NCBI GenBank assembly: GCA_964016885.1
Contig: CAXHJY010001312.1
Span: forward strand, 1-31,924
Source of the DNA: Eledone cirrhosa
Lineage: Eukaryota
DNA: 31,924 nt
Direction of reading: 5' to 3'
Each line of letters starts with the position of its first letter. Positions within the stretch are counted from its first letter, which is position 1. This document shows positions 23,308 to 25,154 of this stretch, piece by piece. A program made the position numbers and the translations under genes. Below the pieces are notes generated by a model. That model did no database searches. It saw only the letters and a program-made list of their open reading frames with translations, and was not told the origin of the DNA.

Positions 23308-23661
23308 TACATATACACAGACACATATACACACTCACATATATATGTGTGTGCACACACACATATATACATACATACACATATATACACATAAACACAT
23401 ATATGTGCATACATGCACACACACACACATATATCACATAGATACGAAGATAGACATATAAATAGAGAGACATACATATATATACTACACACATACACAC
23501 ACATACATACAGACACACATACATATACATATATATATACATATATATATATCTCTATATATACATATATACATATACATATATATATACATATACATAC
23601 ATACATATACATACACATATACATATACACATTCACATACACATACATATATACATGCATA
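20512..23661 (-). repeat. PLE-A pseudo-LTR, upstream 5'-truncated copy
   Basis: Direct repeat of 13644-16614. Similarity stops at ...CATGCATA 23661. Confidence 0.9.
20701..20854 (-). ncRNA. Type I hammerhead ribozyme motif (PLE-A, upstream copy)
   Basis: Same sequence as 13833-13986. Predicted cleavage after 20711. Confidence 0.75.
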
Positions 23662-23665
23662 GACA

Positions 23666-25154
23666 CAGAGACACACCCTATACTACATACCCAACACTAG
23701 CTGATCCATTATAACACAAACAACGACATCCCTCTGGAACCCTTCGCAGGGAAAATACCCATTTATACCTCTACGGCAGGTGTGACAACATCCACCCACT
23801 TGGACGGCACTACACCGCTCTAAGGGTAATTTGAGCATGAATTGATCGGTTGGATGGTGTTGGGCAGAGGAAACACCTTCCTTAGACAGATGTAAAATGA
23901 TTTAATCGAGTAGCGCTGTTGACCAGTAGGACCGGGCTGCGGAGCGCAGTGAGTGAATGCAATGCAACTGCCGTGCGGGTTGTACGTATATGGATGATCT
24001 GACGGTCAGAGAGGGGTCGCGAGGACTGCGGATTGACCTTTGGCCTGCCTGGGGACGATTATCTTTCGACATCCAATGTAGCAAGTGATGACCCAGATCT
24101 TACCAGAGATCATTGGGTCCTGAAGCAATCCTGCAATCACCGCGCCTGGCCATATGAGCAGACTACAACCACAGAGATCATTAATTTAGAATCCTCGCTC
24201 ATCATCTATAATTTCCATTTGTAGCACCTTAAGATGGGTTAATCCACCTTAATAATAATATGATCACCTTCAGCATAATTTAGTTAAACTACTCTATAGT
24301 TAGTACACTTTATGCTTTAAAAGTCTCTCTTGGAGGGTGCACCTCACCATAGAATTTAGGGTCCATATTGGGACACATTTTAATGGCTAGATATAGAAAC
24401 CCCAGAGTTACCTCCCCGCATGCATTAACTCCCCTTAGCCACACACACACTTCCGGTATTCAATGGCGTCTCTCGAAACGTAACAACCTCCTGTATCGAA
24501 CTAAAGAACACCAGACTACGATCTCTAACTGGATTGTCGTGGATTATGTGAAAGGCATATAATCGAAATATACACTCCCTTGATCATGAAAATGCCGAAG
24601 TACATGAATTACTTGACATCCCTGCGTTGTGCATCTCCAATACTTATAACACTTTTAATGCTTGCACTATCTTTAATGCTTATAATATTTCTCCACACAC
24701 AGACTACATCAATCATATAAAGACTTTGCCACCAGATAACCAACCTAACACTCTTATTTACCTACCTAAGTGCCTCTACCACACATATCTCTCTGCCACA
24801 CTATATAAACAAGACGCACATGCGTGCCACACATATAACATTTGCACTATATAACCACTTATCTTCATGTTGTACTTTAACCTATATCTTTGATTTTTGA
24901 TTGTACCTATTAATATGAATGTAATCTCGAAGTGTGTACTGCCACTCTAAATTTTGTAATGAATGTTGACCCACAATGTTTGAATATGTATCAATGTTTG
25001 AATATGTATTGGTATGTCCCTCGGCTGAAAAGGAGGTCATATAACTGTCCATGCATTAATAAATTGCTCCGAAGAATCCAAACCTCGGTTTGGAGGAAAC
25101 AGCTGTAAGCACAATAATGTTTTGAACAGTTCTTTGATTCTTATATTTCATATA
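23666..25154 (+). repeat. PLE-B pseudo-LTR, upstream copy
   Basis: Matches 27863-29353 with about six substitutions seen by eye and one TA indel. Confidence 0.92.
25062..25115 (+). ncRNA. Minimal type I hammerhead ribozyme motif (PLE-B), CCGAAGA core variant
   Basis: UGCU-CCGAAGA-A-UCCAAAC(CUCG)GUUUGGA-G-GAAA-C-AGCU-G-UA^AGCA. Palindromic loop 3 AGCU. Predicted cleavage after 25107. Confidence 0.75.

Follow-up and report, generated by a model that had tools for sequence, protein, structure and literature searches.

A 5'-to-5' junction of two PLE families with Hydra-clade motifs in a TA-rich locus of Eledone cirrhosa, and its possible origins

PLEs of the Hydra clade, as presented in the available sections of PMC8557442, have a C-terminal endonuclease, the motifs RW[K/R] and DKT, a CxCx5C linker, and CxxC and CxH near the end of the protein. 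They also have a hammerhead near the 3' end, target (TA)n, and occur as partial tandems and as inverted copies truncated at the 5' end. The locus described here shares these features, its ribozyme motifs being hammerhead-like. Clade members in that source are mostly shorter than 3 kb and their inverted copies belong to one family, whereas the two elements found here, A and B, form units of ~6.9 kb and ~4.2 kb whose 3' regions are long and whose linkers are Asn-rich. A second relative is Pen2a_Av, nested in Pen3 of Adineta vaga (PMC3846280), where two PLE families likewise lie in opposite orientation, ORFs carry Asn-rich inserts and head-to-head palindromes occur. In the portions of that paper available, the Pen2a_Av insert is accompanied by an inverted pLTR of its own and by a 9-bp TSD, whereas the present locus has no same-family partner arm and no remainder of the other element.

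Two proposals have been made for inverted PLE ends, in the parts of the papers at hand: self-priming (PMC3846280) and priming of both strands (PMC11167929). In the accessible text of the latter, Poseidon_Ac cut and extended both strands in vitro, with two internal RT starts and an optional tail. B likewise has two 3' ends (25154 and 25318), although Poseidon_Ac is of the Poseidon clade and its tail measures 30-40 nt against 164 nt in B. Separately primed ends with joined cDNAs are also described, in the sections available, for L1 twin priming and synchronous bridges (10.1101/2024.08.27.596794; PMC10191854), and in the bridges two distinct 5'-truncated L1s are joined at their 5' ends, as in the geometry seen here. 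The L1 bridges involve the same protein family, poly(A) priming, readable TSDs and a known somatic timing, while the present insert combines families that are 41% identical in a TA target where a TSD is unreadable. A literature search, mainly of titles and abstracts and with most subscription journals outside its coverage, returned no 5'-to-5' junction of two PLE families, and the available portions of PMC10191854, PMC9977147 and 10.64898/2026.07.22.740005 contain nothing on two-family PLE junctions.

Self-comparison of the window, meaning the whole 31,924-nucleotide stretch that was analyzed, revealed an insert of ~15.7 kb (13640-29353) in which an A arm on the minus strand (13640-23661) and a B arm on the plus strand (23666-29353) are fused 5'-to-5'. 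The A arm consists of a 3' end in TA, a long microsatellite-rich 3' region, an ORF and a 5'-truncated upstream repeat; the B arm runs from its own 5'-truncated upstream repeat through an ORF and 3' region to a 3' end in TA. Both 3' ends face outward into TA repeats, as the initial annotation had reported, with A's placed at 13640 rather than 13644. That annotation interpreted the insert as a candidate hetero twin-priming event. Its two inverted arms, each with a 3' end at an end of the TA target, do have the twin-priming form. The L1-type definition, in which one RNA molecule serves both primers, does not describe the long insert, as its arms belong to different families.

By their motifs, A and B are placed in the Hydra clade, to which they would add new members with 3' regions of unusual length. 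The families had been called unrelated, which proved wrong: their proteins are 41-42% identical, distinct yet related, and their nucleotide sequences share only short matches of 72-76%. RWR and DKT (in place of DKG) are found in A (RWR 37, DKT 115) and, both in the first frame, in B; among 116 homologues, 29 have RWR and 43 have RWK. The C-terminal motifs are CNCRNKANC (the CxCx5C linker), YIG, CRLC and CNH in A, and CNCRANRTC (again the linker), YVG, CNLC and CQH in B. By eye, these agree with figure S7 rows in the accessible part of PMC8557442, and each ORF has one Cys only between the two tyrosine motifs; a nuclease core lacking the CCHH motif is a further mark of the clade. Insertion into (TA)n is seen throughout, with the outer ends at 369, 4861, 5476, 8605, 8846, 13640 and 29353 all adjoining TA repeats. 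A Naiad/Chlamys PLE, which has an N-terminal endonuclease, DKA and no hammerhead, was rejected because both elements carry their nuclease motifs at the C-terminus and have DKT instead. Three translations gave no significant Pfam match, and no hammerhead was among 110 Rfam matches, all of which fell below the gathering score and in microsatellite. The homologue search returned the 116 proteins, the best at 40% over full length and one of them named, with an unrelated annotation. A metagenome scan yielded, out of 78 candidates, a single weak locus (E 1e-4, 52 residues).

The A ORF (17914-20355, minus strand) encodes 813 aa, with an RT, a C-terminal GIY-YIG-type domain, the Hydra motifs and YCDD, compared with YRDD in 83 of the 84 homologues having that motif. 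The B ORF (25361-27819, plus strand) carries the Hydra motifs, YRDD and a 1-nt frameshift near 25903, where the contigs of all three covering public runs have one more base (part of the depth in the run labeled X3). Between RT and nuclease, both contain an Asn-rich stretch (aa 475-670 in A, 18% Asn; aa 312-506 of the second frame in B, 21% Asn), and these linkers recall the N-rich inserts of Adineta Penelopes.

The upstream partial repeat of A (20512-23661, minus strand, 3.15 kb) is a copy of 13644-16614 plus a 149-nt block at 20982-21130. The two repeats share 2938 matches, with 7 substitutions in 2945 aligned bases (0.24% divergence) and 10 gaps, made up of nine microsatellite length changes and the 149-nt block. 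The block is confined to the upstream repeat and flanked by shared ATATTT. A spliced intron was rejected as its origin, since its ends are not GT-AG and ATATTT is shared. The repeats probably derive from different source copies. A hammerhead-like motif with a CTGAAGA core, a long stem II and a GTT site lies at 20701-20854 (minus strand), with a second copy near 13833-13986. Its fold z is -6.15, and the putative GTT site is as in several Hydra entries. The short A arms in the window with a visible 5' end (3/3) stop at the same base (28, 29 and 8813; equivalent to 13983/20851), in the sense context TTC/ATTATTT, 7 nt before the hammerhead core. This context resembles an initiator consensus, and the shared base is likely to be a fixed 5' end of the A RNA, about 340 nt upstream of the RT start. 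The 3' region of A (14483-16654; 21486-23661) holds more than 2 kb of TA/CA microsatellite, including 21 TA tracts of at least five units in the upstream copy. Because it carries so many TA tracts, A spreads its own target and that of B.

In the case of B, the upstream partial repeat (23666-25154, plus strand) is a copy of 27863-29353 that begins 43 nt past the stop-codon equivalent. Over 1489 bases, 1483 match, with 6 substitutions and 1 gap (0.40% divergence). A hammerhead-like motif lies at 25063-25115 (plus strand), with a second copy near 29260-29312; stem II alone appears in the lowest-energy fold. The variant core, CCGAAGA (25069-25075), is changed at a normally fixed position in the upstream and downstream copies and in the copy at 4861-5476.

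Part of B was present in 8 of 12 listed rows of runs from other organisms. The public contigs of four of these 12 runs (X1, X3, X6 and X2) were compared with 23612-27860, skipping 23612-23665 as repeat; the highest share of sampled words in any run was 0.69, and no run appears to be the source individual. The 3' ends of B recur in these data, 25154 next to TA in X2 and 25318 as the stopping point of contigs in X1 and X6. Among the contig pieces listed, none showed a joint or loose end at the junction, but with the adjacent 23612-23665 skipped this absence does not count against it. Contigs starting at 23666 in X1 and X2 run on into the end of the B ORF. A preferred truncation of B at 23666 was rejected, as the runs have no pile-up there, although contigs cannot show ends. 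Of the six differences between B's repeats, the contig positions listed cover five: four (23800, 23941, 24086 and 24150) are alleles in other runs, and 24917 is found in none of the four runs compared. This suggests that B's upstream repeat came from a second template copy. Dating by repeat divergence was rejected for the same reason, because those four differences segregate in other runs.

At the junction itself, alignment of both upstream repeats bears out the annotated breakpoints: A stops at 23661, B starts at 23666 and only GACA (23662-23665) separates them. The filler had been described as a repeat of adjacent sequence, and the match is longer than reported, a 7-nt direct repeat (AGACACA, 23661-23667 and 23669-23675) that recurs 8 bases further on. 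By chance, 3 to 5 of the 144 possible 4-nt fillers would match equally well (1-4%). The source of the filler is ambiguous, because the 10-mer CATAGACACA also spans the A/B joint and is present twice in each copy of A's UTR. The filler could instead have come from A's own UTR, or be 1 extra base plus B sequence with a 1-nt loss. The filler would mark end joining whether the insertions occurred at the same time or separately, with sequence copied from nearby as the ends were joined, and we take it to be a product of polymerase-theta-type repair. The claim that TA is lacking at the junction holds for a TA spacer and is otherwise weaker than stated, in that the A side ends in TA and the A template across the break reads ATATATA. 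Beyond the break, A would continue as TATACAC, and AAACAC precedes the start of B in the B template. Neither unique A sequence to the right of B nor, left of the junction, any B sequence originating upstream of 27863 was found in the window, only low-complexity matches of 68-78%; the remainder of A beyond B that would have counted against the annotation's reading does not lie in the window.

The small inserts nearby indicate how these elements integrate. All four in the window are two-armed and head-to-head, none has a 5' end joined straight to TA, and their eight arms are all short (visible lengths of 29-371 nt, one arm being truncated at the edge of the window). The B insert at 4861-5476 has arms equivalent to 25318-24948 and 24908-25154, with two different 3' ends. 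The arms have 207 nt of template in common, the inner 40 nt occur in the right arm only and the outer 164 nt in the left arm only. Because each arm holds template that the other lacks, fold-back cannot account for this insert; it must have been primed twice, from two start sites, which favors two separate primings as the origin of inverted PLE ends. In the A insert at 8605-8846 the arms (equivalents 13776-13983 and 13674-13644) do not overlap, and the left one starts inside the element, where a short stretch matches the target. It resembles L1-type twin priming on one RNA and is the only insert in the window fitting that definition. The A insert at 1-369 is a perfect palindrome centered at 28/29, with both arms ending at the same template base and sharing a variant missing from other A copies; it fits either the fold-back or the two-priming model. 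The fourth insert, at 1397-1598, has ~52 nt extra in its right arm and matches A and B at low complexity only. The three clear single-family centers show overlaps of 2, 2 and 0 nt and no filler. The single-family inserts had been said to share the geometry of the long insert. This is correct for their inverted, two-armed form, but their left arms differ: that of 8605-8846 starts internally, that of 4861-5476 has the 164-nt extension and the left end of 1-369 lies off the window. Two-ended priming within one PLE family is therefore the part of the hetero twin-priming claim that is well supported, together with the geometry. Simultaneity is the part that fared less well, with two rough tests leaning towards sequential insertion.

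Our preferred account, to which we give a probability of roughly 55%, is that A and B inserted in separate events and that the intervening DNA was lost afterwards. Each arm would have been made by its own family's protein through target-primed reverse transcription on a cut in (TA)n, with reverse transcription continuing through the ORF and onto another template copy, the source of the upstream repeat. By one route, A would have joined its target via the ATATATA run and B would have landed in a short TA tract beside A's 5' end, the leftover TA being trimmed as B's 5' end was joined. By the other, two neighboring two-armed inserts would have been fused by a later deletion that removed both partner arms. 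The probability is split about evenly between these routes, so that each taken singly stands about level with same-time insertion. Separate insertion is favored because A's break sits in a 7-nt alternating A/T run, as if A had joined a TA target; a break in such a run has a 17% chance across positions in A's microsatellite part and 9% in the whole 3' region. Later deletion is favored because both long arms are ORF-complete, compared with eight of eight short arms in the small inserts. In a toy model assuming independent arm lengths and uniform breakpoints, two complete arms were more likely with later deletion than with same-time pairing, by factors of 1.7, 5, 14 and 33 at long-arm rates of 0.2, 0.1, 0.05 and 0.02, respectively. 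These assumptions make the result a lean and not a test, and a contig depth ratio taken from a different organism is among the four inputs. Further support comes from the array being an insertion hotspot with a flipped segment (5613-6031). Published sources add to this, in the parts available: long (TA)n is prone to breakage according to a review (PMC9666358), and PMC3846280 describes an opposite-strand insertion of one PLE into a PLE of a different family, 5' junctions that lack a TSD, and PLE deletions at microhomology. Several observations count against separate insertion: the junction has neither a TA spacer nor a remnant of a partner arm, a one-armed A or B has no example here (four of four small inserts being two-armed), the two flanks look like one array, and A and B are about equally young, to judge by their repeats. 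Against B having landed beside A, with 5406 TA sites to choose from, a hit no more than a few dozen bases away from A's end would rarely occur.

The less probable, though still sizeable, alternative is that both families inserted at the same time, with the ends of one break (or of two simultaneous cuts, with the middle lost) primed on A RNA and B RNA. Each end would be handled by its own family's protein and the cDNA ends joined with the 4-nt filler, so that no RT in trans is required. One such event suffices and accounts exactly for the observed structure, in which neither a spacer nor a remnant of a partner arm remains. Among the neighboring inserts, priming at both ends is the rule (four of four): 4861-5476 requires two primings, and 8605-8846 adds non-overlapping arms and an internal priming site. 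According to the accessible sections of PMC11167929, both strands are cut and extended in vitro by a PLE protein that starts from two sites and is a predicted dimer. The available part of 10.1101/2024.08.27.596794 reports tumors in which two different L1 cDNAs had been joined through their 5' breakpoints. Because both families are young, with the B insert at 4861 being 99.6-100% identical to the long B copy, A and B could have been active together. Same-time insertion is nevertheless a single case here, two ORF-complete arms are unlikely under it if the arms are independent, and the break of A in ATATATA fits an earlier joint between A and its target. The single-family centers without filler are also unlike this junction, and there was no cross-mobilization between the PLE types studied in PMC3846280, in the portions available.

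A far less probable alternative is that one RT switched template to antisense RNA or DNA of the other family, or worked in trans on both RNAs. Jumps between templates probably built each upstream repeat, as suggested by A's 149-nt block and by the B differences that are alleles elsewhere, and PLE mobilization of passenger DNA in trans is described in the accessible part of PMC3846280. A sense-to-sense switch, however, would give a head-to-tail chimera and not a head-to-head one, the B arm ends at the equivalent of 25154, a family 3' end that also adjoins TA in X2, and the nucleotide likeness of A and B is limited to the short matches given above. The initial annotation had invoked an RT acting in trans as one possibility. 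This finds no support here, with each arm having its own ORF and its own family's 3' end.

It is only tentatively proposed, then, that Hydra PLEs as a rule prime both cut ends on separate RNAs, independently enough to allow one family per end. If this is true, a single DNA break can be repaired jointly by different families, and mixed head-to-head junctions would preserve a record of which families were active simultaneously in one germ cell. The locus would then amount to a natural two-color experiment, its arms coming from different RNAs and probably from different protein complexes. If one event produced it, the mixed junction is an unreported variant of a known inverted PLE structure; otherwise, it is an ordinary rearrangement. 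Under the later deletion that forms part of our preferred account, the locus still shows long TA arrays as rearranging sinks for PLEs, with two outward-facing ORFs back to back.

The insert lies in a hotspot of PLE landing, with inserts of A and B alternating at intervals of a few kb. Its left flank (370-13639) is a 13.3-kb (AT)n array with ATAA interruptions and three further small inserts, and its right flank (29354-29391) is pure (TA)19 followed by a host minisatellite-like unit that recurs at 30310. The 11-mer after the (TA)19 also follows the TA tract at 30310. The unit at 30030-30320 has mixed ATAA repeats on its left and pure TA on its right, matching the two flanks of the long insert, which suggests that both flanks belong to one array. 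This bears on whether two loci in TA-rich sequence were falsely joined in a read or in the assembly. The very low complexity of the region, and the lack of a contig spanning the joint in the runs compared, make such a chimera conceivable, but we consider it improbable, though not quite as remote as a template switch or action in trans. The flanks fit one host repeat unit, and the joint, with its 4-nt filler and no long shared sequence, appears unlike an overlap misjoin.

The array was also considered as a tail made by the element. This was rejected because the polarity of ATAA does not follow the orientation of A. Between 5613 and 6031 the interruptions read TTTA, while everywhere else they read ATAA on the plus strand; from this polarity, the segment is taken as a local inversion inside the AT array. 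To the right of the insert, ~609 bp of non-coding sequence (29402-30048) lie between two copies of a 19-nt repeat (29402 and 30030), possibly a target-site duplication of another element; 29402-30048 had no match to the 116 PLE proteins. Further on, 30310-30660 is a host minisatellite with units of ~55-70 nt, each with a TA tract, and the tract length falls along the series.
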